Shown here: one piece after another, positions 1,506 through 26,461 of the stretch
Position numbering within the stretch: position 1 is the first letter of the stretch
How the letters are laid out: each line of letters begins with the position of its first letter
Translations under genes and position numbers: made by a program
The notes under the pieces: generated by a model
What the model saw: only the letters and a program-made list of their open reading frames with translations
The model's database searches: none
What the model was told of the DNA's origin: nothing
Assembly (NCBI GenBank): GCA_003159795.1
Contig: PLPK01000035.1
Coordinates: 1-56,527 of the forward strand
From: Acidimicrobiaceae bacterium
GTDB taxonomy: Bacteria > Actinomycetota > Acidimicrobiia > Acidimicrobiales > Bog-793
DNA length: 56,527 nucleotides
Direction of reading: 5' to 3'

Positions 1506-1598
1506 GTTACGCGTTCGGCGCGCCCACCGCCTGCAGTTCTCACCGGCGACCGATTGGTTGCGCCCGGCAATTGTCGCACCTGGATCGAGTCCGTCGCC

Positions 1599-2219: not shown

Positions 2220-2238
2220 GATTGCCTCCCCTTCTCCT

Positions 2239-3492: not shown

Positions 3493-3541
3493 GCAATCAC
3501 CTCGTCACCACAGCCACTCCTGCGAGCGTACCGCCGGGCCG

Positions 3542-4450: not shown

Positions 4451-4458
4451 TTCGCCCG

Positions 4459-5169
4459 TTATAGCCGGTCGGCGCCGAACGGCGCGGATGCGACGGCGGC
4501 GGCCTCAACGACCCGCCCGACCGGAGCAACGGACCAGGTCAATCGGTGGATCGGGGTTGTGCCGAGGCGGGCGACGGCGAGGCGGTGCTCGAGCGACGCG
4601 TACCCCTTGTTGCGCTCGAACCCGTAGCCCGGATGGGTCCCGGCGGCCGCGATCATCAACCGGTCCCGGGTCACCTTGGCGAGTATCGAGGCCGCGGCGA
4701 CGACGACGCAGAGACGGTCGGCCCCGACGATGCACACCGCGCCCGGCGATCCCGTGAAGTCCCGCGACCCGTCGACGATGATCGCGTCCGGCACGACATC
4801 AAGCGCCTCGAGCGCCCGCGCCGCGGCAAGGCGCTGTGCTTCGGCCATGCCGAACGCGTCACATTCGGCGGCGCTGGCGTGTCCGATGGCGTGTCGCAGG
4901 ACGTGGCCTGCGATGGGAGCGAAGAGCCGCAGGCGCTGCGACGGTGACAGCAGCTTCGAGTCGCGCACTCCGGGCGGGAAGCCCGCGAGGCACTCGCCCG
5001 TCACGACCGTGACGCCGACCGTGAGCGGCCCCGCCCAGGCTCCGCGGCCAACCTCGTCGATCCCGGCGACCGTCCGGCACCCTTCCGCGACGAGCCGCGT
5101 CTCCATCCCGACCCCCGCGTCGCGGTTCGTCCGGTGGCGCACGGACGGGCCGGGGGGCCTCTCAGGCAC
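4459..5169 (-). CDS. rnhB: Ribonuclease HII
   Basis: GIDEVGRGAWAGP, RDSK, VDG, AAASILAKVTRD, NKGY motifs; start uncertain (GTG 5169 or ATG 5106). Confidence 0.95.
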   Translation of the reverse strand: MPERPPGPSVRHRTNRDAGVGMETRLVAEGCRTVAGIDEVGRGAWAGPLTVGVTVVTGECLAGFPPGVRDSKLLSPSQRLRLFAPIAGHVLRHAIGHASAAECDAFGMAEAQRLAAARALEALDVVPDAIIVDGSRDFTGSPGAVCIVGADRLCVVVAAASILAKVTRDRLMIAAAGTHPGYGFERNKGYASLEHRLAVARLGTTPIHRLTWSVAPVGRVVEAAAVASAPFGADRL

Positions 5170-6199
5170 GGCGGCCGCCGTCGCGGACCCGGTCGCTCCG
5201 GTTGGGGAGGTTCTCCACCTCCGACCGCGGTGCACGACGCATGAGCAGCGGGATCGCCTCCGAGGGAGGTCGGTTCCCGTAGCACACGGCGACGACCTGC
5301 TCGGCGACGGGAACCTCGACGTCGAGTTGACCCGCGAGGTCGACCACCGGTCGGCAGGTCTTCACCCCCTCGGCGACCATGCGGGTCCGGCCGATCACCT
5401 GCTCGAGCGACAGGCCCTGCCCGAGCGCGACGCCGACCGCGAAATTCCTACTCTTCAGGCTCGTGCAGGTCGCGACGAGGTCGCCGAGGCCCGCGAGGCC
5501 CGCGAACGTCGCCGGCTCCCCGCCGAGCGCGACACCGAGTCGGGTGAGTTCGGCGAGCGAGCGCGTGATCAGGGTGGCCCTCGTGTTGTCACCGAATCCG
5601 AGGCCGACCGACATGCCGCTCGCGATCGCCAGGACGTTCTTCACCGCGCCAGCGATCTCGCAGCCGATCACGTCTGGGTTCGTGTAGACGCGCAGGGTCT
5701 CGGTTACGAAGAGGTCTCGGATCTCGCCGGCAAGGCTCTCGTCGGCGAAGGCGACGACCGACGCAGTCGGTTGACCCTCGCACACCTCGGCTGAGAGGTT
5801 CGGACCCGTGAGCACCCCGACGGGGTGGCCGGGCCAGCACGCGTCGACGATCTCCGAGATCCGGGCCATGGTGCCCTCCTCGAGACCCTTCGAGAGGCTG
5901 AGCACCGGGACACCCGCCGGGACATCCCCTGCCGCCGCGCCGAGGACGGCGCGCACGCCATGACTCGGGAGCGCGATCACGACGAGCTCGGCACCACCGA
6001 GCGCCTCGGCGACCGACGAGGTCGCACGCAGTCGGTCCGACAAGGGGAAGTCCCCGAGATACGAGGAGTTCCTCCGTCGATCGCGTATCTCGGCGACCAC
6101 GGCCTCCGAACGCGCCCAGAGCGTCGTCGGTGTGCGAGCCGAGACGAGCGATGCGATCGTCGTCCCCCAGGAACCGGCGCCGAGCACGGCAACTCTCAT
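5162..6199 (-). CDS. gpsA: NAD(P)H-dependent glycerol-3-phosphate dehydrogenase
   Basis: GAGSWGT, SKGLE, GPN, GAVKNV, GLAGLGDLVATC, SRN, AEGV motifs. Confidence 0.97.
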   Translation of the reverse strand: MRVAVLGAGSWGTTIASLVSARTPTTLWARSEAVVAEIRDRRRNSSYLGDFPLSDRLRATSSVAEALGGAELVVIALPSHGVRAVLGAAAGDVPAGVPVLSLSKGLEEGTMARISEIVDACWPGHPVGVLTGPNLSAEVCEGQPTASVVAFADESLAGEIRDLFVTETLRVYTNPDVIGCEIAGAVKNVLAIASGMSVGLGFGDNTRATLITRSLAELTRLGVALGGEPATFAGLAGLGDLVATCTSLKSRNFAVGVALGQGLSLEQVIGRTRMVAEGVKTCRPVVDLAGQLDVEVPVAEQVVAVCYGNRPPSEAIPLLMRRAPRSEVENLPNRSDRVRDGGRRA

Positions 6200-6367
6200 C
6201 GAAACCTCACCGACAAGAGGTTCGGCGGCTGTGCGCGATGCCGACCATCTGAGACACGCTAATACCCGGTCCCGTCACGAACCCTCATCCACCCGCACCC
6301 GTACGACCCGCTCCAGGGTCGCACGAACTCAGGCGAACCACGACCGCACCGACCATAGACTGCCGCG

Positions 6368-6979
6368 GTGCGCGCAGTGCTTGTCCCGGTGAAGTCGTTC
6401 CGACTGGCCAAACTCCGGCTCGCGGGGGTGCTCAACGGGCAGGCGAGGAGGCGGCTCGCGCGCGAGCTCGCCGAGATCGTCCTGTCCGCCGCGCACGGCA
6501 CGCCCGTCTACGTCGTCTGCGACGACGGAGAGGTCGCGGACTGGGCGGTCAACCGGGGGGCGACGGCCCTCTACGCGCCGGGACTCGGCCTGTCGGCGGC
6601 CGTCGAGGCGGGTGTCAGACACCTCGCGGGGGAGGGGTTCTCTCTCGCCGTGGTCACCCACGCCGACCTTCCGCTCGTGAGCGACCTCTCCGGATTCGGG
6701 TCACCCTCCGAGGTGACGCTCGCGCCGGACCGCAGGCGCGACGGCACAAACGTCGCCGGGGTGCCGACCGAGGCCGGCTTCCGTTTCTCATACGGGCCGG
6801 GTTCGTTCGCCCGCCACCTTGGCGAGGCCGCGCGACTCGGCTTGCACTGCACAATCGTCGACGACCCGCGGCTGTCGTCCGACGTCGACCTACCGGTCGA
6901 CCTCGCGCTGATGTCGCGCCTCGTCGCGCAGCCACCCGCCACGACCACCGCGGAACCCACCAAGGACGAACAACAGTGA
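6368..6979 (+). CDS. cofC: 2-phospho-L-lactate/PEP guanylyltransferase (F420 biosynthesis)
   Basis: VPVKSFRLAKLRL, ADLP, PDRRRDGTN, YGPGSFARH, DVDLPVDL; divergent from gpsA as in other Actinobacteria. Confidence 0.93.
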   Translation: MRAVLVPVKSFRLAKLRLAGVLNGQARRRLARELAEIVLSAAHGTPVYVVCDDGEVADWAVNRGATALYAPGLGLSAAVEAGVRHLAGEGFSLAVVTHADLPLVSDLSGFGSPSEVTLAPDRRRDGTNVAGVPTEAGFRFSYGPGSFARHLGEAARLGLHCTIVDDPRLSSDVDLPVDLALMSRLVAQPPATTTAEPTKDEQQ

Positions 6980-7031
6980 GGCGGCGTTTGCGGCAGAAAC
7001 GACGCCGCACGGGACGGACGCAGCTCACGAG

Positions 7032-7760
7032 ATGACCACGAACCTTGCGACCCCGAAGCGCGCGCTCGCGATCGCCGCCCACGCGGACGACATCGAGTTC
7101 GGGTGCGGCGGCACGTTCGCGAAGTGGGCCCGCGACGGGTCCGAGATCTTCCATCTCATCTGCACCGACGGTTCCAAGGGCTCCTGGGATCCCACGACGG
7201 ACCCGGCTCGGCTCGTCGCCATGCGGCAGGCCGAACAACGCGCGGCGGCGCGCACCCTCGGCGGGTCGGCCGAGGTCGTCTTCCTCGGCTGGCCCGACGG
7301 CGAGCTCGAGCCCGGCCTGGCGCAACGAAGAGAGATCGCCCGCTGGATCCGGACGATCGCCCCCGACGTCGTCCTCGGCCACGATCCGTGGATGCATTAC
7401 CGGCTCCACCCCGACCACCGCGCGGCCGGCTTCCTCGTCACGGACGGTGTCGTCGCGGCGCGCGATCCCCTGTTCCTGTCGGACCTCGGTCTCCCACCGC
7501 ACCGACCGCGAACCGCTCTCCTGTTCGAAGCCGGCACGATCGACCACGTCGAGGACGTCTCGGCCACAATCGGGGTGAAGATCGCGGCACTGCTCCAGCA
7601 CCGCAGTCAGCTGCGATCAACAATGGCGATCCCGGACGAGGAGACGGACGGCGGTCCCAGGCTGGACGCGTTCCATGCGCGGGTGAGGAGCGAGGCCGCC
7701 GGAGTCGGAGCGCCCTACGGGTTTGCGGCGGGGGAAGGGTTCAAACTGCTCGAGCTATGA
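7032..7760 (+). CDS. PIG-L/LmbE family deacetylase
   Basis: AHADD, TDGSKGS, RQAEQRAAA, PDGEL, HPDH, HRSQ motifs. Confidence 0.92.
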   Translation: MTTNLATPKRALAIAAHADDIEFGCGGTFAKWARDGSEIFHLICTDGSKGSWDPTTDPARLVAMRQAEQRAAARTLGGSAEVVFLGWPDGELEPGLAQRREIARWIRTIAPDVVLGHDPWMHYRLHPDHRAAGFLVTDGVVAARDPLFLSDLGLPPHRPRTALLFEAGTIDHVEDVSATIGVKIAALLQHRSQLRSTMAIPDEETDGGPRLDAFHARVRSEAAGVGAPYGFAAGEGFKLLEL

Positions 7761-7809
7761 GCGACCCACTCTGAGTCCCGGCTTTCTCGCCAGGACCCAG
7801 AGTGGTCGC
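7761..7809 (-). terminator. Long hairpin between convergent PIG-L and hup genes
   Basis: GCGA-C-CCACTCTG-A-GTCC-C-GGC/TTTCTC/GCC-A-GGAC-C-CAGAGTGG-TCGC; the two A/C mismatches become G-U pairs only on the minus (hup) transcript. Confidence 0.7.
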
Positions 7810-7823
7810 GAAACACACCGCTT

Positions 7824-8465
7824 TCAGTGTCGTGCTGCTACTGAACGAGCCGAAGCCTTCCGGGCCGGAGCCTTCTTGGCCGGTGGACGCTTCGCAGGCC
7901 GCTTGCGTGCCGGTGCCCGCTTGGCAGGAGCCTTGCGCGCTGGCCGCTTCTTGGCCGGAGCCTTCTTGGCCGGAGCCTTCTTGGCTGGAGCCTTCTTGGC
8001 TGGAGCCTTCTTGGCCGGAGCCTTCTTCACAACCTTCTTCGCCGCGGCCTTCTTCACAACCTTCTTCGCCGCGACCTTCTTCACAACCTTCTTGGCAACA
8101 ACCTTCTTCGCTGCCTTCTTCGGCGCAGCCTTGCGTACGGGGGCGGCCTTCTTCGCGACCGGCGCGGGCGCCGGCTTCCGAAGAACGGCGCTCGAGTTCA
8201 GATCCGTCTTCAACTGGATACCGGGGGTGAACCCAATACCCTTCGACGCCTTGATGTGGACCGGAGCACCCGTTTGCGGATTTCGTCCGCGACGCGCTTT
8301 GCGCTCCCGCAGCTTGAATGTGCCAAAACCGGTGATACGGATTGGAACCCCCGTGCGCACGCCCCTGGTGATTTCGTAAACGAGCGAATCGAGCGCGGAT
8401 TCCGATTGCTGACGGGTCAGACCAGTGTCAACACTGATTGCACCGATCAGTTCGGTTCTATTCAC
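7824..8465 (-). CDS. hup: HU family DNA-binding protein with histone-H1-like PAKK tail (HupB-like)
   Basis: ITGFGTF, GRNPQTG; C-terminal KKAPA/KKVV repeats; GTG at 8465 with GGAGG RBS. Confidence 0.96.
   Translation of the reverse strand: MNRTELIGAISVDTGLTRQQSESALDSLVYEITRGVRTGVPIRITGFGTFKLRERKARRGRNPQTGAPVHIKASKGIGFTPGIQLKTDLNSSAVLRKPAPAPVAKKAAPVRKAAPKKAAKKVVAKKVVKKVAAKKVVKKAAAKKVVKKAPAKKAPAKKAPAKKAPAKKAPAKKRPARKAPAKRAPARKRPAKRPPAKKAPARKASARSVAARH
7860..8160 (-). repeat. 15-nt-period coding tandem repeats (KKAPA / KKVV) in hup tail
   Basis: GGAGCCTTCTTGGC(C/T) repeated in tandem and CCTTCTTCACAACCTTCTT repeated three times. Confidence 0.9.
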
Positions 8466-8732
8466 GGCCACCTCCTGTAAGTGTGTAGCCAATGCAATAA
8501 AAGGCGATTTGGCCGCGAATTGCAAGCACTCTCGGCCTCACAACACGCCACGACGCAGTTGCGCGACACGAAGTTCAACACATCGGATCTCGGTTCTCCA
8601 GTAGCCGCCTCGTATCCCCTATAACTAAAGGCTTCTGCGAACGCGCCGAATGCCACACACTGGAAACCCACCCGCGGGTGATCGGTAGGTGTTTCGTGAA
8701 CTCGCGCGTGCGACGATGCCTCCACGGCGTCG

Positions 8733-10160
8733 TTGGAGGCTCTGCAGCACGAATCGAGCGGGAACGCGTTGGCGCGCGTGCTCGCCGCGTCGGTGACTCA
8801 CAGTCACGGCATCTATCTCGGCGCCGCGCACGGCGAACCGGTATTTGCACCACGCGAGCATGGAACGCTGGTGCTCGGTCCGCCGCGTTCCGGAAAAACG
8901 TCAAGCGTTGTTGTGCCAAATGTTTTCGCGGCGGCAGGCTCGGTCGTCGCGGTGTCCACGAAGCGCGACGTCCTCGACGAGACGCGCATGGTCCGCAGCC
9001 GGATCGGCGAGTGTCTGCTGTTCGACCCGAGCGGCACTGTGGAGGTCCCGCCGGGCGTGCACGCGGTCGGTTGGTCGCCACTCGCCTCCGCCGCGACCTG
9101 GGATGGCTCGGTGTTCATGGCCGAATCGATGGTCGGCGCGAGCCGGGAGGGCAGGGACCGGGTCGACGGTTCGCACTGGACCGAACGGGCGGCGGCCCTG
9201 CTCTCGTCGATCTTCCACGGTGCCGCGCTCGACGGCGCCCCGCTCGACGATGTCGTCGCGGCCGTGAACCGGAGGTCCCCGGAACGCTTCGTCGCGGCGC
9301 TCGCGCGCCACGACGCGACCCTCGCCCTCGACCTGCTGATCGGGATCACCGAGACCGAGGAGCGTGAGCAGAGCGCCATCTGGTCGACCGCCTCGGGCGT
9401 GCTCGCCGGCTACCGCACGAGCGCGGCCCTGGCGAGCGCAGCCCTCGCGCGGTTCGACCCCGAGCGCTTCGTGCGCTCCCGTTCCACGCTCTTCGTCGCC
9501 GCGCCGGCCGAGTACCAGCAACACCTCGCACCGCTCGTCGCCGGCATCATCCGGGACGTCCGCACCGCCGCCTACCGGTTCCACGCCACGACGGAGAGGC
9601 GCGCGGATGCTCCCGTGCTGCTCGTTCTCGATGAACTGGCCAACATCGCGCCGCTCCACGACCTCCCGGCGCTCGTGGCCGAAGGAGCGAGCCAGGGCAT
9701 CGTGACGCTCGCCAGTCTCCAGGACCTCTCCCAGGCGCGGGCGCGCTTCGGGACCGTGGCGGACGGCTTCCTCACGCTTTTCGGTGTGAAGCTCGTGCTC
9801 GCCGGGATGAGTGACGTCCGCACTCTCGAGGCGCTCTCGGCGCTCGCGGGCCACCGCGACGAGATCGTTACCTCGACGACGACGTCGCGGGCCCCGGGCC
9901 GGCTGCGACAGAACACGACGCGGACCGTGACCACGCGACGCGAGCCCCGTCTTCCCGTCGACGCCATCGCCCAGCCCCCACCGGGGACGGCCATCGCCTT
10001 CGTCGGCGCCCGTCCGTTGCGGGTCCAGCTCACGCCGCATCACTCCTCGTCGCCCTGGCGCGAGATCTCCGCGAGTTCCATCGCGCAGCCGGTCGTCGCG
10101 CCGCGGACCATCCGGCAGTGGTCGCGAGCCGGGGGGCGCCACCGGGGCCTCAGCGGCTGA
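8733..10160 (+). CDS. VirD4/TraG-like type IV coupling protein ATPase, no N-terminal TM anchor
   Basis: GIYLG, Walker A GPPRSGKT, VAVSTK, LFDPSG, GWSPL, Walker B LLVLDELAN, LQDLSQ. Confidence 0.9.
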   Translation: MEALQHESSGNALARVLAASVTHSHGIYLGAAHGEPVFAPREHGTLVLGPPRSGKTSSVVVPNVFAAAGSVVAVSTKRDVLDETRMVRSRIGECLLFDPSGTVEVPPGVHAVGWSPLASAATWDGSVFMAESMVGASREGRDRVDGSHWTERAAALLSSIFHGAALDGAPLDDVVAAVNRRSPERFVAALARHDATLALDLLIGITETEEREQSAIWSTASGVLAGYRTSAALASAALARFDPERFVRSRSTLFVAAPAEYQQHLAPLVAGIIRDVRTAAYRFHATTERRADAPVLLVLDELANIAPLHDLPALVAEGASQGIVTLASLQDLSQARARFGTVADGFLTLFGVKLVLAGMSDVRTLEALSALAGHRDEIVTSTTTSRAPGRLRQNTTRTVTTRREPRLPVDAIAQPPPGTAIAFVGARPLRVQLTPHHSSSPWREISASSIAQPVVAPRTIRQWSRAGGRHRGLSG

Positions 10161-12369
10161 GCGAGGGTTCCCTGCGGCGCGCAGCGCCGATGAGACGCGC
10201 GTTCCGGCTCCAACCGGGACCATCGCGGTCGGGAACCGGCTCCATCCCGCGCACCCTCCCCCGGCGTTCGGATTCGATCGCCCTCGCGCGCCACAGCTCG
10301 CGGGCGCGCCGGCCCTCGGGGGACCTTCCGAGCTCACGGCGCAGCACCGCTGGTTCGGCGAGCTCCAGCGCGAACGACCGCTCGCCGGCGGGATCCCGGT
10401 CCACCGGGGCGACGGCGACATGGCAGTGCACGCCGTCGGGAAGGCGCGCGATCCCGGACCCGAGGATCCGCGCGCCCCCGAACACGATGAGATCGAGATC
10501 CCCGCCCAACCGGCGCAGCGCTTCGCCCGGGCTGGCGGCCTCGCAGCCGAGGGGGGCGAGAAGGCGCGGCTCGGCGGCCACGACGAGGCACCGGCGTCCC
10601 CGCGCGCGCCGCTCCCCGTCCAACAGGCGGATCCCGCCGAGCGCGGCCGCGAGGTCCCCGGCGAGAAGAACCTCGACGTCACCTACCGTGTGCCGGGTGA
10701 GCGCCCCATCCGGAGCGGACCATCCGGCGAGGAGGGCCCCTTCCCGACCGGCGGGTGGTGGCGTCCGCCCGGCAGAAGAACCCCCCCGTACGAGCACGAG
10801 CGTCGTGCCCCGGGCGCGCGCCTCGTCGACGAGCGACAGCACCTCACGCACGGGACAACGCTCGGGGTCGGCGATGACGACGAGGGAGCCGCCACCGGAC
10901 ACCTCGCGGCGGTCGAACACGGTCGTCGTGACCCCCGTCGCCGCCTCGAAATGGGCGGCGGCACGGCGGTTCGGCGCGAGGCCGACGACCCGACGGCCGT
11001 CGCGATGTGCCGCGACCGCCGCCGCGCGCAACTCCTCGTAGTCCTCCAGCGGGCGGTTCGCCCGGCCGGCCACGACGACCCCGGGGGCGATCGTGCCCGC
11101 CGGTCGGAGAGCCCCCGCGTCATCCCTCGCCACGGCGAGCACCGGTGCCGACTCGAGCGTTACTTCCAGCCGGTCGCCCAGTGCCGCGACTTCCCGCGTC
11201 GCGAACCGGGCTTCGACGAGACCCGCTGGGATGCGCCCGCCCCCGGCCGCGCGCAGCCGGACGGTGCGCGCGCCGTACCGCACGAGCTCGCCCGAACCGA
11301 GGTGTTGATCGACGGCGACCTCGACCCGCTCGACGGGGGCGCCGTCGTCCAGGCGGGCGCACGTCGCCCGGATCAGCTCACGCCGGTCGAAGGCGTGGCC
11401 GAGGGACTCGGCCGACTCGGCGACGCGCGCCGCCAGCCCGGGGTCGCGCCCGGTCCCGGGCCGCCCCGTCCGGGGGGCGGCGGCACCGAGCCTGCCCACG
11501 GACGCCCGGGACACCCCGAGTGCGAAGGCCCGCTCACGCCAACCGGCGACGAGCGCCGGGTAGTCCCGAGTGAGGACCTTGTCCGGACGGGTGCGGTCGG
11601 CGGCCAACCGTGCCGAGTGCGGCCCTGACCATCCCGTGCGAGCGAGCTCGGCGGTGATCTCCGCACTGCGACGCGAGAAGCCGCGCACCGCAGCCGCCGG
11701 GATCCCGATGAGGTCGGCGAATCCCTCAGCGCGTGCCTGCCACGAGACCGCGAGCCGTCGGGAGATCTCGTAGCGCAGCTCCGCCCGGTACAGGGCCCCG
11801 GCCACGCCGACGTTGGCGAACAGCGCCCGGGCGTCGAGCGCCGACCATCTCCCACCGGCGTCCGGCGCGAGGTTGGCCACGACAAGGTGTGTGTGGAGGT
11901 GCGGGTCGTTCGCGCGGCTCGTCCGGTGGAGGAACGACGCCGCGGCGAGGCCCGGCGCCGGTTGAACCGAGCCCCCGCGGCGCACGTGCGCGGCGTGCCG
12001 CTCGAGGTACCCGAGGGCGCCCGCGACGGCACGCTCATGCGCGGCGCGCACCTCCCCGATGGCATCGTCCGGGCCCAGGGCGTGGAGCAGGCTCACCGAC
12101 TTCGGCGCGGCGAACGTGCAGTCGAAAGCGGTGACGGTGACGCGGTCGTGGCGGGGGTCGAGCGCCACACCGGCCACGGGGTCCACCCCGGCGAGCAGCG
12201 TCGACAGGCTCGCGGCCTCGACCGTCCGGCCGGCGAGGCCGAGGTGGGCGGCCAGACCTCCCCACCAGGCGCCGTCGGACTCGACGAGCCCCGGCTGCTC
12301 CGGAGATCCCCTGGTCGCCTCGAGGTAGTACACCTCGCGGCCCCGGCGCACCTTCGCCACGTTGAGCAC
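10150..12369 (-). CDS. MobF (TrwC/TraI-type) relaxase with degenerate helicase-like C-terminus
   Basis: N-terminal LNVAKV...YYL, FDCTFAAPKSVS, HRTSRANDPHLHTH, FSRRSAEI; GTG start at 12369 inferred because MobF domains begin at the extreme N-terminus. Confidence 0.93.
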   Translation of the reverse strand: MLNVAKVRRGREVYYLEATRGSPEQPGLVESDGAWWGGLAAHLGLAGRTVEAASLSTLLAGVDPVAGVALDPRHDRVTVTAFDCTFAAPKSVSLLHALGPDDAIGEVRAAHERAVAGALGYLERHAAHVRRGGSVQPAPGLAAASFLHRTSRANDPHLHTHLVVANLAPDAGGRWSALDARALFANVGVAGALYRAELRYEISRRLAVSWQARAEGFADLIGIPAAAVRGFSRRSAEITAELARTGWSGPHSARLAADRTRPDKVLTRDYPALVAGWRERAFALGVSRASVGRLGAAAPRTGRPGTGRDPGLAARVAESAESLGHAFDRRELIRATCARLDDGAPVERVEVAVDQHLGSGELVRYGARTVRLRAAGGGRIPAGLVEARFATREVAALGDRLEVTLESAPVLAVARDDAGALRPAGTIAPGVVVAGRANRPLEDYEELRAAAVAAHRDGRRVVGLAPNRRAAAHFEAATGVTTTVFDRREVSGGGSLVVIADPERCPVREVLSLVDEARARGTTLVLVRGGSSAGRTPPPAGREGALLAGWSAPDGALTRHTVGDVEVLLAGDLAAALGGIRLLDGERRARGRRCLVVAAEPRLLAPLGCEAASPGEALRRLGGDLDLIVFGGARILGSGIARLPDGVHCHVAVAPVDRDPAGERSFALELAEPAVLRRELGRSPEGRRARELWRARAIESERRGRVRGMEPVPDRDGPGWSRNARLIGAARRREPSLSR

Positions 12370-12467
12370 CGCGGGGACGGTAGGAACGGACCGTGTTCCG
12401 CGACCTACCGCCGCGCCGCCGTTCCCGGGCCACCGGCACTCGGGGCCCAAACCGGCCGACCGGTCCC

Positions 12468-13427
12468 CTACGAACCGTCCCGGTACCGGGCGAGCGCCCG
12501 CCTTGCGACCCCTGCGGCGGCACCCGCGAGCTCGGGCGGGTCGACCACCTCGGCCGCCGGTCCGAGCCGGAGGACGAGACAGCCGAGGAAGTACTCGTCG
12601 GCGACCTCGATCGGCGCGACAACACGGCCGTCGGGCAAGCGGGACGGCGGCGCCGAGACCAGCCGATCGATGAGCACGTAGGAGGCCTGATCGAAAGCGA
12701 CGTAGGCGGTGCGCGCCCCCGCTCCCCCGACGAAGGCCCGTGCGCCGCCGAGCGCGGCGGGCAGCGACCGGGCCGTGACCGGCTCGCCGAGACGCCGAAC
12801 CCGGGTGATGCGCGCGACCTGGAAGCGCCGCCAGTCCCCGGCGAGACCGCAGAAGGCGTCGAGGTAGAACGTCCCCTCGCGGGCGACGACGGCGTAGGGC
12901 TCGACGCGCCGCGTCGTCTCGTCGCCGCGTTTCGCGCCGAGATAGTCGATCTCGACCGCCTCGCCCGCGGCGGCCAGCTCCCGCAGCTCCTCGAGGTGCG
13001 GGGGCACGTCAAGCTCGACGCTCACCCGCTCGAGACCGAGGGCGTGGCCGAGCTTGTCGAGCGCCGTGGCGAGCGGACCGGTGGGCTCCACGCCCTCGAT
13101 GGCGAGCATCGCTCTGGCCGAGGCCGCGAGCGTGAAGCCCTCGTCCGGCGTGAGACGCGCCGGGCGGCGCAGCGCGTCGAGCCCGTAGGCGACGACGCGG
13201 TCGTCATCGACGATCAGCTCGAGCAGCGTGTCCGGCGTGTACGGCGGCAGCCCGCAGCAGGCGGCGAGCTCGAGCTCGCCGACGAGGGATTCCGGCTCGA
13301 AGCCGAATCGCGTCGCGAGATCGCCGATGGACGACTCGCCCACGCCGGCGAGGTACGTGAGGACGGCGAGGAGCCGCCGCAGACGGGCCCCCGCGTCAAC
13401 GCCCTCGGGCGTGTGCCCGGTGCTCAG
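12468..13427 (-). CDS. pafC: HTH-WYL-WCX transcriptional regulator, PafC-like
   Basis: RLRRLLAVL, CGLPPYTPD, RRPARLTPDE, RRVEPY, FYLDAFC, RRFQVARI; start inferred as CTG overlapping the pafB stop. Confidence 0.88.
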   Translation of the reverse strand: MSTGHTPEGVDAGARLRRLLAVLTYLAGVGESSIGDLATRFGFEPESLVGELELAACCGLPPYTPDTLLELIVDDDRVVAYGLDALRRPARLTPDEGFTLAASARAMLAIEGVEPTGPLATALDKLGHALGLERVSVELDVPPHLEELRELAAAGEAVEIDYLGAKRGDETTRRVEPYAVVAREGTFYLDAFCGLAGDWRRFQVARITRVRRLGEPVTARSLPAALGGARAFVGGAGARTAYVAFDQASYVLIDRLVSAPPSRLPDGRVVAPIEVADEYFLGCLVLRLGPAAEVVDPPELAGAAAGVARRALARYRDGS

Positions 13428-14386
13428 CGTGGTCCCCCGGCCCGGGCGGCCGTCTCGAGGCGGTCGATGGCACCGCGGCGGAGAGCCACCGGGGCGAGCA
13501 CCTCGACCGCGTCGCCGAGCCCGAGCACCCACGAGTAGAAGGCTTCCTCGTCGCCGACGGAAAACGCCAGGCGCACCGACCCGTCGGCGTCGCGCCCGCG
13601 CACGGCCCCCGCACCGACGAGCGCGATGACGCTGGCGGCCTCGCGGGCGTCGACGGCGACCTCGACCTCGGTCGCCTCGGGCTCGACCGGCCCCGAGGGC
13701 TCCGGCTGGAACGGCACGTAGCGCAGCTCCGTCGCGGCGTCGAAGCCGTCCGGCCGCTCGTAGCTCGCCGGCGTGCCGGCGACCGGTTCGCTCTCGAACC
13801 GGTCGACCCGGAAGCGGCGCAAGCCCCCGGATTCGCCGACGCCGGCGTCCCGCCCCACGAAGTACCAGCTGCCGCCGCGGAAGACCAGCCCGTAGCCGTC
13901 GACGCGCCGTTGCCGCCCGTGATAGGCGAACGCGACCGACGCCCGGTCCCGGATCGCCTGCTGGAGCAGCCCGAGGAACGGCAACGACGGGAGCACCGCG
14001 ACGGGCGCGACGTCAGCCGCCCGTGCCGTGCCGAGCTTGTGGAGGACCTCGCGGCCGACTCCGCCCTCCAGGCGCACGGCGAGCAGCGCGAAGGCGAGCG
14101 CCGCCTCTTCGTCCGGGGTGAGCCCGAGGTCGGGGAGGTAGTACTGCTCGGGTAGGATGCGGTAGCCGACCTGGTCGTCACCATTGACGCGCTCGACGGA
14201 GATCGGTATCCCGTTGTCGCGCAGCGTGCGCTTGTCGCGTTCGAACGCCTGTCGGAGTGCACCGGGGGCGGTCGGGTAGCCGGCGACGGCGAGGCCGATC
14301 TCCCGCAGCGAAAGCGGGCGGGAGGCGTCCAGCAGGGCTAGGACGAGGTTCGTGATTCGCTCGAGCCTGCTCAGCCTGGTCGACAC
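13424..14386 (-). CDS. pafB: HTH-WYL-WCX transcriptional regulator, PafB-like
   Basis: RLERITNLVLALL, FERDKRTLR, GYRI, LTPDEEAAL, WYFVGRD, FRVDR. Confidence 0.92.
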   Translation of the reverse strand: MSTRLSRLERITNLVLALLDASRPLSLREIGLAVAGYPTAPGALRQAFERDKRTLRDNGIPISVERVNGDDQVGYRILPEQYYLPDLGLTPDEEAALAFALLAVRLEGGVGREVLHKLGTARAADVAPVAVLPSLPFLGLLQQAIRDRASVAFAYHGRQRRVDGYGLVFRGGSWYFVGRDAGVGESGGLRRFRVDRFESEPVAGTPASYERPDGFDAATELRYVPFQPEPSGPVEPEATEVEVAVDAREAASVIALVGAGAVRGRDADGSVRLAFSVGDEEAFYSWVLGLGDAVEVLAPVALRRGAIDRLETAARAGGPR

Positions 14387-14484
14387 ACAAGCAATCTAGG
14401 CCGGGCCCCGGGTGCCGAGATACCGCTGGGCGCCTTGCGCGACGCACCGGGACGGGATGAACCGATGACAGCCGACAGGACCGG

Positions 14485-16350
14485 ATGATGACGGTGCGGA
14501 CGAAGGACGAACTGCGGAACGTGGCGATCATCGCCCACGTCGACCACGGCAAGACGACGCTCGTCGACGCGATGCTCCGCCAGGGCGGTGCGTTCGGCGC
14601 CCACGCCACCGTCGTCGACCGGGTCCTCGACTCCCTCGACCTCGAGCGCGAGAAGGGCATCACGATCCTCGCCAAGCAGGCCGCCTTCCGGTTCGGGACC
14701 CGCCGCCTGAACGTCGTCGACACCCCGGGCCACGCCGACTTCGGCGGTGAGGTCGAACGCGCCCTCGCGATGGTCGACGGCGCGATGCTGCTCGTCGACG
14801 CCTCGGACGGTCCCGGGCCCCAGACCCGCTTCGTGCTCCGCAAGGCGTTCGAGTCGGGGCTGCCCGTCGTACCCGTCGTGAACAAGGTCGACAGGCCCGA
14901 CGCCCGGATCGCCGAGGTCGTCGACGAGACGATCGAGCTGTTCCTGGACCTCGAGGCGCCCGAGGGCCAGTACGACATCCCGTTCCTGTTCGGCAGCGCC
15001 CGTGACGGCTGGCTGACGCTCAACCAGCCGCCGGGGCCGGTCGCCGAGCCACCCGAGGGCGGGGACCTCGCGATCCTCGTCGAGGTGCTCTTCGACCACC
15101 TCCCGCCGCCCTCGTACACCGAGGGCGCCCCCCTCCAGGCGCTCGTCACCAATCTCGACGCCTCGCCGTATCTCGGCCGGCTGGCGATCTGCCGCGTCGT
15201 CGAGGGGACGATCCACGACAACGAGACCGTCGCTTGGTGCCGACGCGACGGGACGGTCGAGCGGGTCCGCGTCACCGAGCTCCTCGTGCCCGCCGACCTC
15301 GGCCGGGTCCCGGCCGACTCCGCCGGACCCGGCGAGCTCATCGCCGTCGCCGGCATCGACGAGATCACCGTCGGCGAGACGCTCGCCGACGCCGAGCACC
15401 CGGTCGCGCTGCCGCTCCTCATCGTCGACGAGCCCAGCCTGTCGATGACGGTCGGGGTCAACTCCTCGCCGCTCGCCGGCCGGAATGGGACCAAGCTGAC
15501 GGCGCGCCTCCTGCGGTCACGCCTCGAGGCCGAGGTGTTGGGCAACGTCGCGATCCGCCTCGTGCCCACCGAGCGCGCCGACACCTTCGAGGTGCAGGGT
15601 CGCGGGGAGCTCGCCCTGGCGGTCCTCGTTGAGACGATGCGCCGCGAAGGATTCGAGCTGACCGTCGGCAAGCCCGAGGTGCTCACCCGGGTGGTCGAGG
15701 GCGTCGTGTGCGAACCGGTGGAGCGCCTCTCCATCGAGGTCCCCGAGGAGCACCTCGGCACCGTCACGCAGCTCATCGCCCGGCGACGGGCCCGCATCGA
15801 CCGCATCGTCCACCACGGGACCGGCTGGGTCCGCCTCGGCGGGCTCGTCCCTTCCCGGGGGTTGATCGGGATCCGCGGCGAGCTGATGACCCAGACACGG
15901 GGCACGGCTCAGCTCCACCACTCGCTCGAGCGCTACGAGCCCTGGCAGGGTGAGATCCGGATGCGGGCGAGCGGCAGCCTGATCGCCGACCGCCCGGGCG
16001 TGGCGACCGCCTTCGCGATCACGAACCTTTCCGAACGCGGGTCGATGTTCGTCGGCCCGGGCGAGGAGGTCTACGAGGGGATGATCGTCGGTGAGAGCTC
16101 GCGGGCCGACGACATCGACGTCAACGTGACCAAGGAGAAGAAGCTGACGAACATGCGATCCTCGACCTCGGACGAGTTCGTCAAGCTGCCGCCGATCCGG
16201 CGGCTCACGCTCGAGCAGGCGCTCGAGCACGCCGACGAGACCGAGTGCGTCGAGGTCACGCCCTCGGTCGTCCGTCTGCGCAAGGCGGTCCTCTCACGGC
16301 ATGACCGGGCTCGCGGGCGCGGCCGGGAACGTCGCGTCACGAGCGGCTGA
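14485..16350 (+). CDS. typA: Translational GTPase TypA/BipA
   Basis: RNVAIIAHVDHGKTTLVD, DTPGHADFGGEVER, NKVD, GRGEL, VYEGMIVG, KKLTNMRSS. Confidence 0.97.
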   Translation: MMTVRTKDELRNVAIIAHVDHGKTTLVDAMLRQGGAFGAHATVVDRVLDSLDLEREKGITILAKQAAFRFGTRRLNVVDTPGHADFGGEVERALAMVDGAMLLVDASDGPGPQTRFVLRKAFESGLPVVPVVNKVDRPDARIAEVVDETIELFLDLEAPEGQYDIPFLFGSARDGWLTLNQPPGPVAEPPEGGDLAILVEVLFDHLPPPSYTEGAPLQALVTNLDASPYLGRLAICRVVEGTIHDNETVAWCRRDGTVERVRVTELLVPADLGRVPADSAGPGELIAVAGIDEITVGETLADAEHPVALPLLIVDEPSLSMTVGVNSSPLAGRNGTKLTARLLRSRLEAEVLGNVAIRLVPTERADTFEVQGRGELALAVLVETMRREGFELTVGKPEVLTRVVEGVVCEPVERLSIEVPEEHLGTVTQLIARRRARIDRIVHHGTGWVRLGGLVPSRGLIGIRGELMTQTRGTAQLHHSLERYEPWQGEIRMRASGSLIADRPGVATAFAITNLSERGSMFVGPGEEVYEGMIVGESSRADDIDVNVTKEKKLTNMRSSTSDEFVKLPPIRRLTLEQALEHADETECVEVTPSVVRLRKAVLSRHDRARGRGRERRVTSG

Positions 16351-16375
16351 ACGACCAGGCACACCCGGGCGCCGG

Positions 16376-16879
16376 TCAGACGAGCGGCGGCAGGAAGCGC
16401 CCGAAGCGCAGCGGCGGCTTGTCGAGGACGAAGGTGACGAGCACGTGCAGGTCGCGGAGGCGCACGACGACGATGGCGAGCGGGTCATGCTTCCGGCCCG
16501 GCGGCCAGCCGAGCGCCACGCCGTTCGTCGAGAAGCTCCCCCGGTACGCGACAACGCACACGGCGCTCCGTTCGCGCAGCACCGCGCCCGGGATGACGAA
16601 CCAACGGTGCTCGCTCTTCCTGAACCCCCGAAGGGCCGTCGTGAGGTCGCGCGGGCTCAGATAGCGCACGCCGGCGAAGCGCCCCGTGTCGTTGACGGCC
16701 GCGTGCGTCACCGCGAGGACCCGGAAGCACGAGCTCTCGGTCGACCCGAGGACGTTGCGCGGCGCGGTGCACGCCGAAAGCCCGGCTGACGCGGCGAGGA
16801 GCGCCGCCGACGCCGCCACGAGCCTCGCCGCTCTCGCCGTCCGGCCCCGGGGTGCTGGCCGGAGCCCGTCGCTGCTCAT
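16376..16879 (-). CDS. Hypothetical lipoprotein
   Basis: ATG overlaps upstream stop (ATGA); signal peptide with lipobox LSAC; C-terminal part of track ORF 16376..17614. Confidence 0.75.
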   Translation of the reverse strand: MSSDGLRPAPRGRTARAARLVAASAALLAASAGLSACTAPRNVLGSTESSCFRVLAVTHAAVNDTGRFAGVRYLSPRDLTTALRGFRKSEHRWFVIPGAVLRERSAVCVVAYRGSFSTNGVALGWPPGRKHDPLAIVVVRLRDLHVLVTFVLDKPPLRFGRFLPPLV

Positions 16880-18006
16880 GTCCCCACCTCTCCCGTCGCG
16901 CCCGACAACTCGTCCACCGTCGCGCGCCCCCGTCGCGATGGCAACCGCACCGCCGATCCCACCGGATCGGCCGCCGCAGGACCCTGCCTCCAGCGGCGCG
17001 CGAGACCAAGCCCGGCCCAGGCCGACCAGCCGACGGGGAGGAAGCCCCAGAAGCTGACGATCCGGTAGAGGAGAACCGCGGCGACCGTCGAGAGATACTG
17101 CCCCCCGAAGACGCCGAGCGCGAACGTGATGCTCCCTTCGACGACTCCGAGCCCGCCGGGCGTGATCGGCAGGTTGGCCGCGAGCTGGGCGACGCCGTAG
17201 GCGAGGAACAGACCGCGCCACGGCACGGTGCTGCCCACCGCGAGGAAGGCGCAGGCGAGGCAGCCGCAGTCGAGGACCCAGTTGCCGAGCGCACCGGCCA
17301 GCGAGACCGCGAGGTCCCGCCAGGTGAGCCGGAGTCCCTCGAGCCGGGCGGCCCATGCGGCGACGACGACGGCACCGCCGCGCCGCGGCCGACCGACCAG
17401 GCGCCGCGAAACCCCGAAGGCGCCGACCACGAGATGCGCCAGCCAGCGGCGCTGAAACACGACGGCGTCGGCGACGACCGAGATGGCGAACACACCGAGG
17501 ATGACCCCGACGAGGTCGTAGGCCGCGCTCACCCTGAAGGCGAAGACGACGCCGACGGTGGCGACGAGACCCAGCGTCGCGGCGGAACAGACAAACGTCG
17601 CGAGGAGGGTCCACACCGCGAGGGTCTCGTCAGCTCCCCGGCGTCGGTAGACACGGTAGACGTAGATGCTTGAAAACGCCGGGCCGCCGGGCAGCGAGCT
17701 GGCGATCGCCGCCGAGGCGGCGCTCAGGGTGGTCATGAACCCGACGCCGGTGCGCACCCCGCCGACCGACAGCAGGCGCCGCTCCAGGAGCCCGAACGAG
17801 ACGTACGACGCGATCTCCAGGACGATCGCGAGGAGGAGCCAACCCAGCTCGAGGTGGGTGAGCTCCTCCGAGGCGCCGAGGAGCTCGCCTTTCCGACCGT
17901 TGAGGGCCCACAGGGCGAGCGCGGCCAGCCCAAGCCCGACAACGAAGCGCACGACGCGCCACGAACGGGTCCGGGTGACCCGACGCAGCCGCTCCCTCCA
18001 CGTCAC
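16876..18006 (-). CDS. Lysylphosphatidylglycerol synthase TM-domain (YbhN/flippase-like) protein
   Basis: LPGG, YRRRG, PITPGGLGVVEG, AVLLYRIVSFW; start inferred at GTG 18006. Confidence 0.88.
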   Translation of the reverse strand: MTWRERLRRVTRTRSWRVVRFVVGLGLAALALWALNGRKGELLGASEELTHLELGWLLLAIVLEIASYVSFGLLERRLLSVGGVRTGVGFMTTLSAASAAIASSLPGGPAFSSIYVYRVYRRRGADETLAVWTLLATFVCSAATLGLVATVGVVFAFRVSAAYDLVGVILGVFAISVVADAVVFQRRWLAHLVVGAFGVSRRLVGRPRRGGAVVVAAWAARLEGLRLTWRDLAVSLAGALGNWVLDCGCLACAFLAVGSTVPWRGLFLAYGVAQLAANLPITPGGLGVVEGSITFALGVFGGQYLSTVAAVLLYRIVSFWGFLPVGWSAWAGLGLARRWRQGPAAADPVGSAVRLPSRRGRATVDELSGATGEVGT

Positions 18007-18138
18007 GCCGCAGCGTACCGTGGCCCCTCGTGGCCCCTCGGCGCCGACCGGGCGCCGATCACGGGTCGGCCCGCCACCTCCCGGTGCCACGTGCTGTCGG
18101 CGCCGGCGGCGCGGCGGCCAGCCCGCCGGGACCGCCAC

Positions 18139-19683
18139 CTAACCGGCGGAGGAGACGGCGAACCAGTCGGACAGGAGCCCGACGGCGACGGCGAAGTTCC
18201 ACCCGGTCACCGTCGTCGTCGACTTGGTGCCCGCCACGACGACGCTCTCGACCCGGCCACCGAACGATCCGTGCCGGTTGCGCACCGTGACAGTGACACC
18301 CACGAGCTGGCCGATGGCAGGGAACCGCCGCTTGACGAGCGCAGCTGGGACCGTCATCCGCCACGTGTGGTTCGGGTTGCACTCGAGCGGGTTCCCGGCG
18401 ACGACACAGGCGTCACCGGGGTCGGGGACCGCGGGGAAGGCGCCGTGCGCGGTCCAGCCGCCGGACGACGCGGAGTACGAGGTGAGCGCGGCGCCGTCCG
18501 TAGAGCGTCTGGCGCGAATGACTCCCAAGGTGTCCGCGACTGCGGCGTCCGTCAGCGGCGATTCGAAGTTCTCACCAACGTAGGCTTCGCAGACGTTGTC
18601 GCAGATGCTCGCGTAACTGTTCCAGCCCCCGGCCTGCATCTCCGCCACGGCGTACGAGCGGGAGGCGACGGCCTGGGCCTCGAGGGCCTGGAACCCCCAG
18701 GCGTGACCCTGCGGGGCGCCAGCGCTGGTCCCCGCGGCGCCCCACGACGGCGATTCCTCGACGGGGACGACACCGTCGAGATAAGACTGCAGCCGCAACA
18801 CGTTGAGCGTCCGCTCGTGTCCCAACCGGTCGTACGCCTCGATCTCGCCGCGCACGACCTCGTCGAGGCCATCGTGCCGGCACAGCGTGAGCAGCGACGC
18901 CGGCGCCGCGACCAGGCTCGTGCTCGCCGGGTGGACCGTCGGATCGACGAGTCCTTTCGCGATCGGTACCTTCCTGCCCGCCGCCGCCCGGGCCGCTGAG
19001 CACGAGGTCGACTCGTACACGTCCCAGGTCCCGGCCTTGGTCAGCCGGAGGTCGATCGCCCTCCCGGCCGGGATCGTCAGCTGCCCGGGTGGGAGCGTCG
19101 TCGTGGTCGACGAGGTCGTCGTGGTCGACGACGTCGTCGTGGTCGACGAGGTCGAGGTCGTCGGCAGCTCGGTCGACGAGGTCGGCGGTAACGTCGTCGT
19201 GGTGGTCGAGGTCGAGGTCGTCGGCAGCTCGGTCGACGAGGTCGGCGGCAGCGTCGTCGTGGTCGACGACGTCGTCGGGGGGGGCGGGGTGGACCCCGCA
19301 CCCGTGACGGTGAACGCCGAGGAGGAGGTGACGACGGGGTCGTAGCCAACGGTGCCGCTCGCGTTCACGTTCTCGAGGATCGCCACCGAGATCGTCGGGT
19401 CGCTGCCGAGGCGCGACCCGGCGAGGCTCGAGCTGACCGTTCCACCGTAGAAGTGGTCGAGGATCTCGCCGTAGGTCTCGTGGTAGCGCACGGCGTCGCC
19501 GAAGTCCCCCCACTGACCCATGCCGAGACCCGGGCCGTAGCCGTGGCCGAGGAAGCTCACCGAGGCGACCGGCACCTCGGTCGAGGCACCGGACACGACC
19601 GCCGCGAGCGGCACGGCCACGATCGCCGACGACGCGAGGGCGACGAGCGCCACGACGCGCCCGCCCCGGCGGGGGGGCACCAT
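18139..19683 (-). CDS. SpoIID/LytB domain protein (peptidoglycan lytic transglycosylase-like)
   Basis: GHGYGPGLGMGQWG, EILDHFYGG, YLDGVVPVE, ALEAQAVASRSYA, YSASSGGWT; signal peptide; start uncertain. Confidence 0.9.
   Translation of the reverse strand: MVPPRRGGRVVALVALASSAIVAVPLAAVVSGASTEVPVASVSFLGHGYGPGLGMGQWGDFGDAVRYHETYGEILDHFYGGTVSSSLAGSRLGSDPTISVAILENVNASGTVGYDPVVTSSSAFTVTGAGSTPPPPTTSSTTTTLPPTSSTELPTTSTSTTTTTLPPTSSTELPTTSTSSTTTTSSTTTTSSTTTTLPPGQLTIPAGRAIDLRLTKAGTWDVYESTSCSAARAAAGRKVPIAKGLVDPTVHPASTSLVAAPASLLTLCRHDGLDEVVRGEIEAYDRLGHERTLNVLRLQSYLDGVVPVEESPSWGAAGTSAGAPQGHAWGFQALEAQAVASRSYAVAEMQAGGWNSYASICDNVCEAYVGENFESPLTDAAVADTLGVIRARRSTDGAALTSYSASSGGWTAHGAFPAVPDPGDACVVAGNPLECNPNHTWRMTVPAALVKRRFPAIGQLVGVTVTVRNRHGSFGGRVESVVVAGTKSTTTVTGWNFAVAVGLLSDWFAVSSAG
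19093..19290 (-). repeat. Thr/Ser/Pro low-complexity linker with a 60-nt tandem duplication
   Basis: TTTTLPPTSSTELPTTSTS twice; sequence lines 19141 and 19201 are near-identical. Confidence 0.85.
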
Positions 19684-20882: not shown

Positions 20883-21172
20883 CGGTCCCTGCGCGCCGCG
20901 ACAGCGCCGAGTGGGCGTTCCACGAAAGCGAGCGCCCGGCGCAGGTACGGCCGCGCCGGCCTCGGCACCACAAGTCGCGCGACCCGCCGCAGCGCCAGCG
21001 AGCGCTCCGAGAGTCGCGGCGTTCGCAGGGCGCGGGTCGCCGCGCGCTCGAAGATCCGGTCCAGCCCGTCCGAGTCTTCCTGCGTCCAGCGCCCGTCGGC
21101 AGCGAGCCGTTCAGCATCGGATCGCGCCGCGGCGACGACCGACGAGGCGAACGGAGCGGGTTCCTCACTCAA
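20879..21172 (-). CDS. Small hypothetical protein in glycan operon
   Basis: Fills the gap between wzt and GT4; stop overlaps next start (GTGA). Confidence 0.6.
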   Translation of the reverse strand: MSEEPAPFASSVVAAARSDAERLAADGRWTQEDSDGLDRIFERAATRALRTPRLSERSLALRRVARLVVPRPARPYLRRALAFVERPLGAVAARRDR

Positions 21173-21205
21173 CCGGGGGCGGTCCTCACTCCGGCGGCGG
21201 AACGA

Positions 21206-22444: not shown

Positions 22445-22451
22445 CGGCTTC

Positions 22452-23444: not shown

Positions 23445-23669
23445 GGCAACCCACACCTCTCGCATGTCCGGCGATCCGGGGTCGCGACCACCGGGGTGCG
23501 TACCCAGCTCATTCCATGCACGCCGATCGAGGCGACGGTGTCGGACTGGCTCTCCGGGGCGCCGCCAGACTCCGGACCAGATCGGACGCATCCTAGTGGG
23601 CGGCCTTTCGGCTCGGGGTCGCATGCGCGCGTCTACCATCGGGCCCAGTACCCGGGCCGAGGAGTCGCC

Positions 23670-26452: not shown

Positions 26453-26461
26453 ACGGCGCGG

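Follow-up and report, generated by a model that had tools for sequence, protein, structure and literature searches.

A stretch of 56,527 nt from an Acidimicrobiaceae bacterium (contig PLPK01000035.1 of assembly GCA_003159795.1; the whole of this stretch is referred to here as the window) carries two genes of the kind that process DNA during conjugation, a coupling ATPase (type IV coupling protein, T4CP) and a MobF-type relaxase, set between hup and the genes of the DNA-damage regulator PafBC. We conclude with high confidence that this pair is a domesticated host module and not a mobile element. We also favour, by a modest margin of belief, the view that PafBC, the TrwC-type relaxase and an apparently anchor-less T4CP constitute an order-fixed and vertically inherited module acting as a cytoplasmic machine, linked to PafBC, for the nicking and translocation of single-stranded DNA (ssDNA). 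A stronger version, in which the DNA-processing half of conjugation has been adopted across the order Acidimicrobiales to serve in the cytoplasm as an effector arm of the ssDNA-sensing response of PafBC, is put forward tentatively, as a proposal that falls a little short of being probable. The four genes concerned are as follows.

8733–10160, + strand: coupling ATPase, predicted anchor-less T4CP of VirD4/TrwB type, 475 aa, TTG start; identified by Pfam, NCBIfam, structural model and Foldseek
10150–12369, − strand: relaxase of MobF/TrwC type, 739 aa, GTG start at 12369; identified by Pfam, NCBIfam, structural model and Foldseek; parts: trans-esterase domain (~residues 1–290), then a linker, then a RecD2-like C-terminal part lacking Walker A
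12468–13532, − strand: pafC, HTH_PafC-WYL-WCX (Pfam), matching PafC of PDB 6sj9 and 7p5x (4e-20); start uncertain within 13397–13532, probably 13397–13427
13424–14386, − strand: pafB, WYL-WCX (Pfam), matching PafB of PDB 9fnd and 7p5x (1e-19); partner of PafC

Conservation and inheritance of the module

The ATPase and relaxase genes converge, with the TGA stop of the former at 10158–10160 and the stop of the latter at 10150–10152 on the opposite strand, so that they overlap by 11 nt, an overlap that is kept in 7/8 genomes of the genus. The first-pass annotation of this DNA, made from the sequence alone, had described a convergent, overlapping VirD4-like ATPase and MobF relaxase, and the open reading frames (ORFs), stop positions and Pfam and NCBIfam assignments all agree with it. 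Its further statements that both ORFs are uninterrupted and host-like in GC richness also hold (GC 0.714 for the ATPase and 0.760 for the relaxase, with GC at third codon positions, GC3, of 0.87 for both, beside 0.70–0.75 and 0.86–0.94, respectively, for the neighbours), and the gap that it gave between pafC and the relaxase on the same strand was measured at the same 98 nt (12370–12467). The range that it assigned to the pair, 8733–14386, does contain both genes, but it covers four, pafC and pafB included. The longest relaxase ORF runs from 10150 to 12450 on the − strand (766 aa), and the GTG at 12369 is the start that orthologues share.

Orthologues of the relaxase were found in all eight genomes of the genus (61–89% identity) and in 24/24 genomes of the family that were searched. 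The order hup, T4CP, relaxase, pafC, pafB was present in 8/8 genus genomes and, as far as the contigs reach, in 17/17 fetched loci of the family, where the relaxase adjoined pafC in all 17 and the T4CP adjoined the relaxase in 16, the contig of the seventeenth ending at that point. Adjacency of hup to the T4CP gene extends from this family to others, and among 20 loci from other families the T4CP was accompanied by the relaxase in nine, seven of which also had pafB/C. A scan of one genome per species yielded at least 584 stretches encoding relatives, from which the best 80 T4CP loci were analysed; all were from Acidimicrobiales metagenome-assembled genomes (MAGs), and part of these genomes were the same as the family genomes fetched earlier. 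A relaxase lay within 9 kb in 65 of these best 80 loci and pafB/C in 59, and in the 70 that offered 6 kb of room or more the counts were 59 for the relaxase, 55 for pafB/C and 55 for both. Surveyed in this way, the site is not empty in relatives, whether at the level of genus, family or species-level loci. Across the order, 61/151 genomes matched at E ≤ 1e-20 (the unpublished G089 and G066 included), and in a phylum sample 23/301 genomes matched at E ≤ 1e-40, mostly at 29–38% identity, a count that takes in the window's own genome, two others of its order and the unpublished G229 and G183. The two best outsiders of the phylum sample (G475 and G273, both 46% identical) had no pafBC nearby in the DNA fetched.

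Both genes are under purifying selection and are co-diverging with their housekeeping neighbours. The ratio of nonsynonymous to synonymous divergence (dN/dS; Nei–Gojobori, median over 28 genus pairs) was 0.20 for the T4CP and 0.35 for the relaxase, neither of them near 1, and 0.11–0.28 for the neighbours (pafB/C 0.23–0.25, typA 0.16, hup 0.15); dS was 0.42–0.72 for all genes, the pair resembling its neighbours. Within the relaxase the ratio rose from 0.23 in the N-domain to 0.40 in the linker and 0.44 in the C-terminal part. When 46 species-level loci were compared pair by pair, the distances of T4CP and relaxase tracked those of gpsA and cofC (Spearman 0.89–0.94, Mantel p 0.002). A tree of 60 T4CPs placed 36 module proteins on one side of a supported split (Shimodaira–Hasegawa-like approximate likelihood-ratio test, SH-aLRT, 93 and 100), apart from T4CPs that have a membrane anchor, whether from this order or from others.

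Four further rows of this tree fell on the module side, one of which is a second copy in a single genome (G126). At this locus (L163, G126:C13, 2901–7369) a full-length relaxase of ~1040 aa is followed by a co-directional T4CP of the module clade, and pafBC is not present; the pair is plausibly a mobile relative of the module's ancestor, a cousin that is still mobile.

The MAG of which the window is contig C11 (2.08 Mb, 86 contigs, 95% complete) has a single relaxase, a single T4CP and a single pafBC pair. A search of this genome gave no match to VirB4 (PF03135) and no match over the cut-off to AAA_10 (PF12846), and its single FtsK is of housekeeping size. The window's contig has no tyrosine or serine recombinase gene, no tRNA adjoins the pair, and the flanking direct repeats are imperfect and of chance grade only. 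Failure to see VirB or other mating-pair formation (MPF) genes, an integrase or att repeats, reported for the window by the first-pass annotation, extends for VirB4 to the whole assembly. In a plasmid collection no homologue exceeded 41% identity for the T4CP or 32% for the relaxase, far from the near-identical plasmid genes expected of a decayed mobile remnant. With host-like GC and GC3 and synteny across the order, the pair is not an integrative conjugative or mobilizable element (ICE or IME). The earlier proposal of a host-domesticated module is therefore supported by a filled site in relatives, dN/dS values far from 1 and the distance of the plasmid homologues.

Features of the two enzymes

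The relaxase matches Pfam TrwC (6e-66), the NCBIfam MobF model NF041492 (1.4e-59, 202 bits against a cut-off of 100) and Pfam TraI_hel_assoc_N (2e-7). Its N-domain aligns to TrwC across the D-x-T-F-x-A-P-K-S and H-x-D-P-H-L-H-T-H motifs, so that the three-histidine metal site of HUH type (aligned to the HxDxxxHxH region of TrwC) and the catalytic aspartate are both present. Among 18 relaxase orthologues Y14, H148, H157, H159 and H161 are invariant, and D83 is found in at least 90%. TrwC has two catalytic tyrosine pairs, Y18/19 and Y26/27. The window relaxase has one, Y14–Y15, of which Y15 is kept in at least 90% of the 18 orthologues; a second pair, at the position of TrwC Y26, was not seen in any aligned orthologue. 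An AlphaFold model (predicted local distance difference test, pLDDT, 79) was matched by Foldseek to TrwC structures 1zm5 and 1omh (E 1e-17, template-modelling score TMt 0.84–0.88, root mean square deviation ~3 Å, ~30% identity) and to F TraI over the relaxase and vestigial helicase domains, while the C-terminal part matched RecD2 (3gp8, 2e-6). No GK[TS] P-loop occurs in the C-terminal part of any of 19 aligned relaxases, the 983–1063-aa forms of other families included, and the AAA_30 match of the window relaxase (21 bits) is under the 27-bit cut-off. The helicase part thus appears degenerate and without a working P-loop, so that nicking chemistry would be kept in a protein whose helicase-like part cannot be an ATPase. 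Relaxase size varies across the order, with forms of 357–460 aa that have no C-terminal part, of ~740–830 aa and of ~1000 aa.

The coupling ATPase is above the cut-offs of three Pfam T4CP families, T4SS-DNA_transf (8.5e-21) and TraG-D_C (1.5e-20) among them. Its Walker A (GPPRSGKT, residues 49–56) and Walker B (D300–E301) are recognizable, and G49–T56 and D300–E301 do not vary among 15 sequences with identities as low as 40%. The structural model (pLDDT 86) resembles Cag-beta (2e-16) and TrwB-ΔN70 (1e-14) in Foldseek, with TM scores of 0.63–0.71 (TMt 0.69–0.71). Walker A lies within the first 3–71 residues in 34/38 scanned T4CP rows (of the others, three gave no match to the regular expression and one is truncated where its contig stops), and in none of these 34 is it preceded by a hydrophobic segment (19-mer). 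Membrane-anchored T4CP paralogues of the same order, 30–36% identical, have N-terminal hydrophobic segments scoring 2.0–3.2 on the same scale. The module ATPase is therefore predicted to have no N-terminal membrane anchor and to be the equivalent of TrwB-ΔN70. Judged from these alignments, both enzymes keep their catalytic residues and have lost parts that serve conjugation, the anchor in the ATPase and the helicase P-loop in the relaxase. A complex prediction for the T4CP with relaxase residues 291–739 returned scores of 0.00 and 0.00 with no controls and speaks neither for nor against binding.

Split and interrupted modules

In each of five genomes where the T4CP had no relaxase within 9 kb, the module is split and the relaxase is found elsewhere, directly downstream of pafC. 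These relaxases are of orthologue grade (43–46% identical), have an open frame of 420–475 aa and are helicase-less, and the corresponding T4CPs remain beside cofC and hup. Since the split genomes keep pafBC with the relaxase and hup with the T4CP, these are the tightest pairings, and both halves survive separation.

Split-module loci (five species): L138–L142 (G476–G480) and L080, L081, L086, L104, L119

Two relatives carry an insertion within the orthologous relaxase gene, in each case exactly within one of its two most conserved motifs; no similar relaxase insertion was seen in the other fetched loci (2 of ~100 loci). The first (L020, G008:C3, 1662–18838) is a low-GC element of ~17 kb in the codons of the His-triad motif P-H-L-H-T. 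Its ends are marked by a 15-bp direct repeat and ~31-bp terminal inverted repeats, and it has the look of a casposon, with genes for a solo Cas1 (538 aa), an N6 methylase, an AbiEii-like ATPase and a NERD protein; a 986-aa ORF gave no match in Pfam or to PDB sequences, and its identity as a polymerase could not be confirmed. The second (L021, G011:C3, ~1559–18985) is a low-GC element of ~17.4 kb inside the D-x-T-F-A-A-P-K-S motif. It has a large serine recombinase gene abutting the left junction, a second recombinase near the right end, a PrimPol and a DNA methylase, and its excision might restore the relaxase gene.

PafBC and a shared promoter element

PafB and PafC match their mycobacterial namesakes over their full length and are the sole such pair in the genome, in which pafA and dop lie on another contig (C29), unlinked from pafBC. 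The two genes are separate in the window's genus and fused into one ORF of ~650–730 aa in many relatives (L025, L026, L027 and most of L060–L131). A short sequence recurs upstream of pafB, the relaxase and the ATPase.

8683–8689, + strand: ATPase element, CGGTAGG, ~50 nt upstream of the ATPase start; left half of the shared element
12377–12410, − strand: relaxase promoter-like element, CGGTAGG, 21 nt, TACCGT, 7 nt, GTG start
14393–14425, − strand: pafB promoter-like element, CGGTATC, 20 nt, TAGATT, 6 nt, GTG start

The layout common to the family before the relaxase, pafB and often the T4CP is GCGGTAGGT, ~20–21 nt, a TANNNT hexamer, 6–7 nt and the start codon, which resembles a promoter of leaderless type. 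The relaxase element is conserved at −40 to −42 in 14/16 family loci, and the ATPase CGGTAGG is conserved in the genus alignment and lies upstream of the T4CP in 9/16 family loci; the pafB element reads CGGTATC in the window's genus and CGGTAGGT in other genera of the family. The pattern CGGTAGG-N18–22-TANNNT is rare, with 1–5 occurrences in most of 27 family genomes (16 in one and none in another). While in most genomes it is no commoner than a reversed control, in many of the 27 it is found at the relaxase or pafB promoter of the module. When CGGTATC was also allowed, the window's own 2.08-Mb genome gave five matches, of which two are the module promoters. The presence of this rare element before pafB, the relaxase and the T4CP argues for joint control of the three units, although the regulator is not thereby PafBC.

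Two further candidates were considered for these sequences and rejected. A genome-wide CGGTAGG regulon was sought with a relaxed scan, which gave 15 unannotated candidates and no evident repair genes. An oriT-like (origin of transfer) hairpin upstream of the relaxase, with a GGTAGG/CCTACC outer repeat and an inner GC stem by eye, scored −0.08 kcal/mol in RNAalifold with a positive covariation term, and we read the GGTAGG repeat as a putative promoter element instead. In other families and one genome of the window's family (L031, L032, L037, L039, L044, L048 and L029), a conserved AT-rich motif with the core ATGAAATA replaces CGGTAGG at the same distance from the relaxase start, in GC-rich surroundings.

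Interpretation and alternative explanations

A nickase with no motor of its own and a DNA pump with no membrane dock have long been kept beside the sole ssDNA-sensing WYL regulator of the genome, for which the simplest reading is a cytoplasmic ssDNA machine; their position right after the genes of a DNA-damage regulator suggests that the enzymes now probably act on intracellular DNA. The three transcription units would be turned on by a signal of DNA damage or ssDNA, detected by PafBC or some other protein that binds the shared element. The relaxase may then cut a specific ssDNA or hairpin site by means of Tyr14/15 and the His triad and stay covalently attached to the 5′ end, and the soluble T4CP could assemble on this relaxase–DNA nucleoprotein and pump ssDNA within the cytoplasm, standing in for the lost motor of the relaxase. 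DNA would in this way be processed within the cell, for repair, restart or the removal of ssDNA, with no transfer to another cell, and the substrate may be damaged chromosomal DNA or invading DNA. We regard a damage-response mechanism linked to PafBC as a credible candidate, if not quite the probable one.

Several observations weigh against the PafBC-linked machine. Mycobacterial PafBC promoters are of a type with a −26 element, TGTCRGTG-N8-TANNNT. This motif was tried as a candidate and gave no match in the window and one in the genome, beside unrelated genes. The shared element lies at about −41 to −34, roughly one helical turn upstream of the mycobacterial −26 element, and the −28 to −23 region of the relaxase promoter is variable, these being the positions (−23 to −28) at which PafB reads promoters in Mycobacterium according to PMC8635444. 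As the mycobacterial motif is absent and the position of the element differs, PafBC control is unproven. The element is also limited to the window's family, with no match in 20 loci of other families, and recA of the same genome (G000:C46, ~27100–27130) is preceded by a LexA-type box of the actinobacterial kind, TCGAAC-N4-GTTCG, and has no CGGTAGG. Upstream of the relaxase, neither a conserved structure (the RNAalifold value above, from 14 family sequences) nor a nic site or oriT-like conserved hairpin was seen. The C-terminal part of the relaxase evolves fast (dN/dS 0.44), and interruption of the gene in two relatives indicates that it is dispensable, at least for a time. Finally, an anchor-less relative of the T4CP is also found on a small mycobacterial plasmid, so that loss of the anchor alone is no proof of domestication.

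An alternative that we consider unlikely, though the strongest of the rivals, is a role in defence against plasmids or phages, in which the WYL regulator would sense ssDNA or infection, the relaxase would nick and cap the invader at MOBF-type sites, and the ATPase would strip it or feed it to nucleases. WYL regulators commonly control defence systems, and PADLOC WYL models match PafB (1e-30) and PafC (7e-22); the T4CP has a weak match to the PADLOC model mad8 (5e-7), whereas the relaxase has none. The methylases, AbiEii-like ATPase and NERD protein of the elements inserted in the relaxase gene would fit a defence hotspot or insertional inactivation, but such insertions occur in 2 of ~100 loci only. 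Moreover, the module encodes neither a nuclease nor any other effector, and defence systems are usually patchy and horizontally moved, whereas this module is order-wide, syntenic and co-diverging with core genes.

Working DNA transfer is improbable, and less likely than defence. Here a chromosomal oriT would be nicked and the ATPase would dock through an unrecognized partner onto an equally unrecognized actinobacterial channel, leading to chromosome mobilization of the Hfr (high frequency of recombination) kind or to DNA export. The catalytic residues of both proteins are intact, and TraI and TrwC carry translocation signals in their helicase region, the counterpart of which is retained here in vestigial form (TraI_hel_assoc_N). 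The co-directional second copy in G126 may likewise be a mobile cousin, and Actinobacteria have many relaxases and few type IV secretion system (T4SS) or T4CP genes, as stated in PMC3158045. Set against these points are an ATPase with no evident anchor, a 95%-complete genome in which no VirB4 and no second FtsK-type translocase was found, an upstream region with no conserved hairpin or nic candidate, and long vertical inheritance at one locus with no mobile signature.

That the pair is a functionless, decaying remnant of an integrated mobilizable element is scarcely credible: conjugation-specific parts have been lost, the C-terminal part of the relaxase is weakly constrained, and the protein is only 357–460 aa in some families and interrupted in two genomes, but across the order the reading frames stay open and the catalytic motifs do not vary, selection is evident in both genes (0.20–0.35) and in the relaxase N-domain (0.23), and both halves have been retained after the module split.

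Neighbouring features of the window

The pair is flanked by gpsA, cofC, a PIG-L deacetylase gene and hup on one side and by pafC, pafB and typA on the other.

5162–6199: gpsA
6368–6979: cofC
7032–7760: PIG-L deacetylase gene, between cofC and hup
7824–8525, − strand: hup, HU with a Lys/Ala-rich tail (Pfam Bac_DNA_binding 9e-26); divergent neighbour of the ATPase gene

The core genes listed as neighbours by the first-pass annotation (gpsA, cofC, hup, pafC, pafB and typA) were all found, but it had omitted the PIG-L gene. This gene had no match at that place in three of the six other genus loci that reach it (L015, L016 and L017; one further contig ends before it), and in two genus loci (L016 and L018) no typA match was seen between pafB and the gene that follows it. 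The Lys/Ala-rich tail of HU (7857–8140) is encoded by 15-nt and 27-nt tandem repeats and has the lowest GC (0.61–0.63) in the first 25 kb profiled. Elsewhere in the window are a cell-envelope polysaccharide cluster (19761–28530) with several glycosyltransferases of family GT4 and an ABC exporter of Wzm/Wzt type, where GC dips at 21.5–23.5 kb, and a gene for an SbcC-like AAA_27/AAA_23 ATPase (46397–48943).

Near-identical DNA is present in peat metagenomes. Metatranscriptome contigs from two peat libraries partly cover hup and pafC as well as the 5′ end of pafB, those over hup being identical to it in sequence, and give a weak hint of transcription only; neither the T4CP nor the relaxase gene is covered by an RNA contig from these two libraries, from which nothing follows about their expression.

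Significance

No published description of the module was found in the literature, subscription journals and supplementary files lying outside the search. Relaxases and coupling proteins serve as markers of mobile DNA, and at this locus they are stable host genes, so that tools that call plasmids or ICEs will misfile it in hundreds of Acidimicrobiales genomes. If the pair does act in the PafBC response, it would add a new kind of effector, an HUH nickase with a hexameric ssDNA pump, to the DNA-damage and ssDNA-sensing pathways, and it would be the first relaxosome to act on own or invading DNA inside the cell. Such a role could also partly explain an old puzzle, the many relaxases and few secretion systems of Actinobacteria, and the locus bears on the scarcity of T4SS and T4CP genes noted for them in PMC3158045. 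In addition, the module provides a natural soluble T4CP–relaxase pair for biochemistry.

Comparison with known systems

Among known systems the nearest are the TrwC–TrwB pair of plasmid R388 and TraI–TraD of F. As in R388, the window relaxase has the TrwC fold, the His triad, the base aspartate and the N-terminal tyrosine pair, and the ATPase, which has Walker A and B and a TraG-D_C domain, corresponds to the cytoplasmic portion of TrwB (TMt ~0.70); as in F TraI, the relaxase domain is followed by a RecD2-like domain in the same order. Unlike both of these systems, the window module is chromosomal, vertically inherited, order-wide, convergent and linked to pafBC, and it appears to be without the anchor, the helicase P-loop and the second tyrosine pair; neither mating-pore genes nor a recognizable oriT were found with it. 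The nearest plasmid homologues (41% for the T4CP and 32% for the relaxase) are on Mycobacterium marseillense pFLAC0026, Rhodococcus pDK5 and others. The T4CP-like protein of pFLAC0026 (440 aa) has no N-terminal hydrophobic segment, like the window ATPase, whereas the Rhodococcus plasmid protein has a clear membrane segment. These actinobacterial homologues lie on small plasmids, beside replication, partition or transposase genes, and none is linked to pafBC.

The regulator resembles PafBC of Mycobacterium and Arthrobacter (7p5x, 9fnd and 6sj9) over its full length, with the helix-turn-helix (HTH)–WYL–WCX architecture, and the fused PafBC of many relatives is as in the Arthrobacter PafBC structure. 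It differs from these in that pafBC is not beside pafA and has a relaxase gene downstream, and from mycobacterial PafBC promoters in that no −26 motif was found and a different element lies farther upstream of the −10 hexamer.

Conjugation machinery has been turned to host use before. Archaeal Ced/Ted DNA import is a domesticated conjugation apparatus, as described in PMC9905601, and T4SSs have been turned into protein transporters, as described in PMC3158045. Ced/Ted and the T4SS transporters keep a membrane channel without a relaxase, whereas the window module keeps the relaxase and coupling ATPase and has no channel; the likeness between them is that parts of conjugation have been kept for a non-conjugative job in the host.

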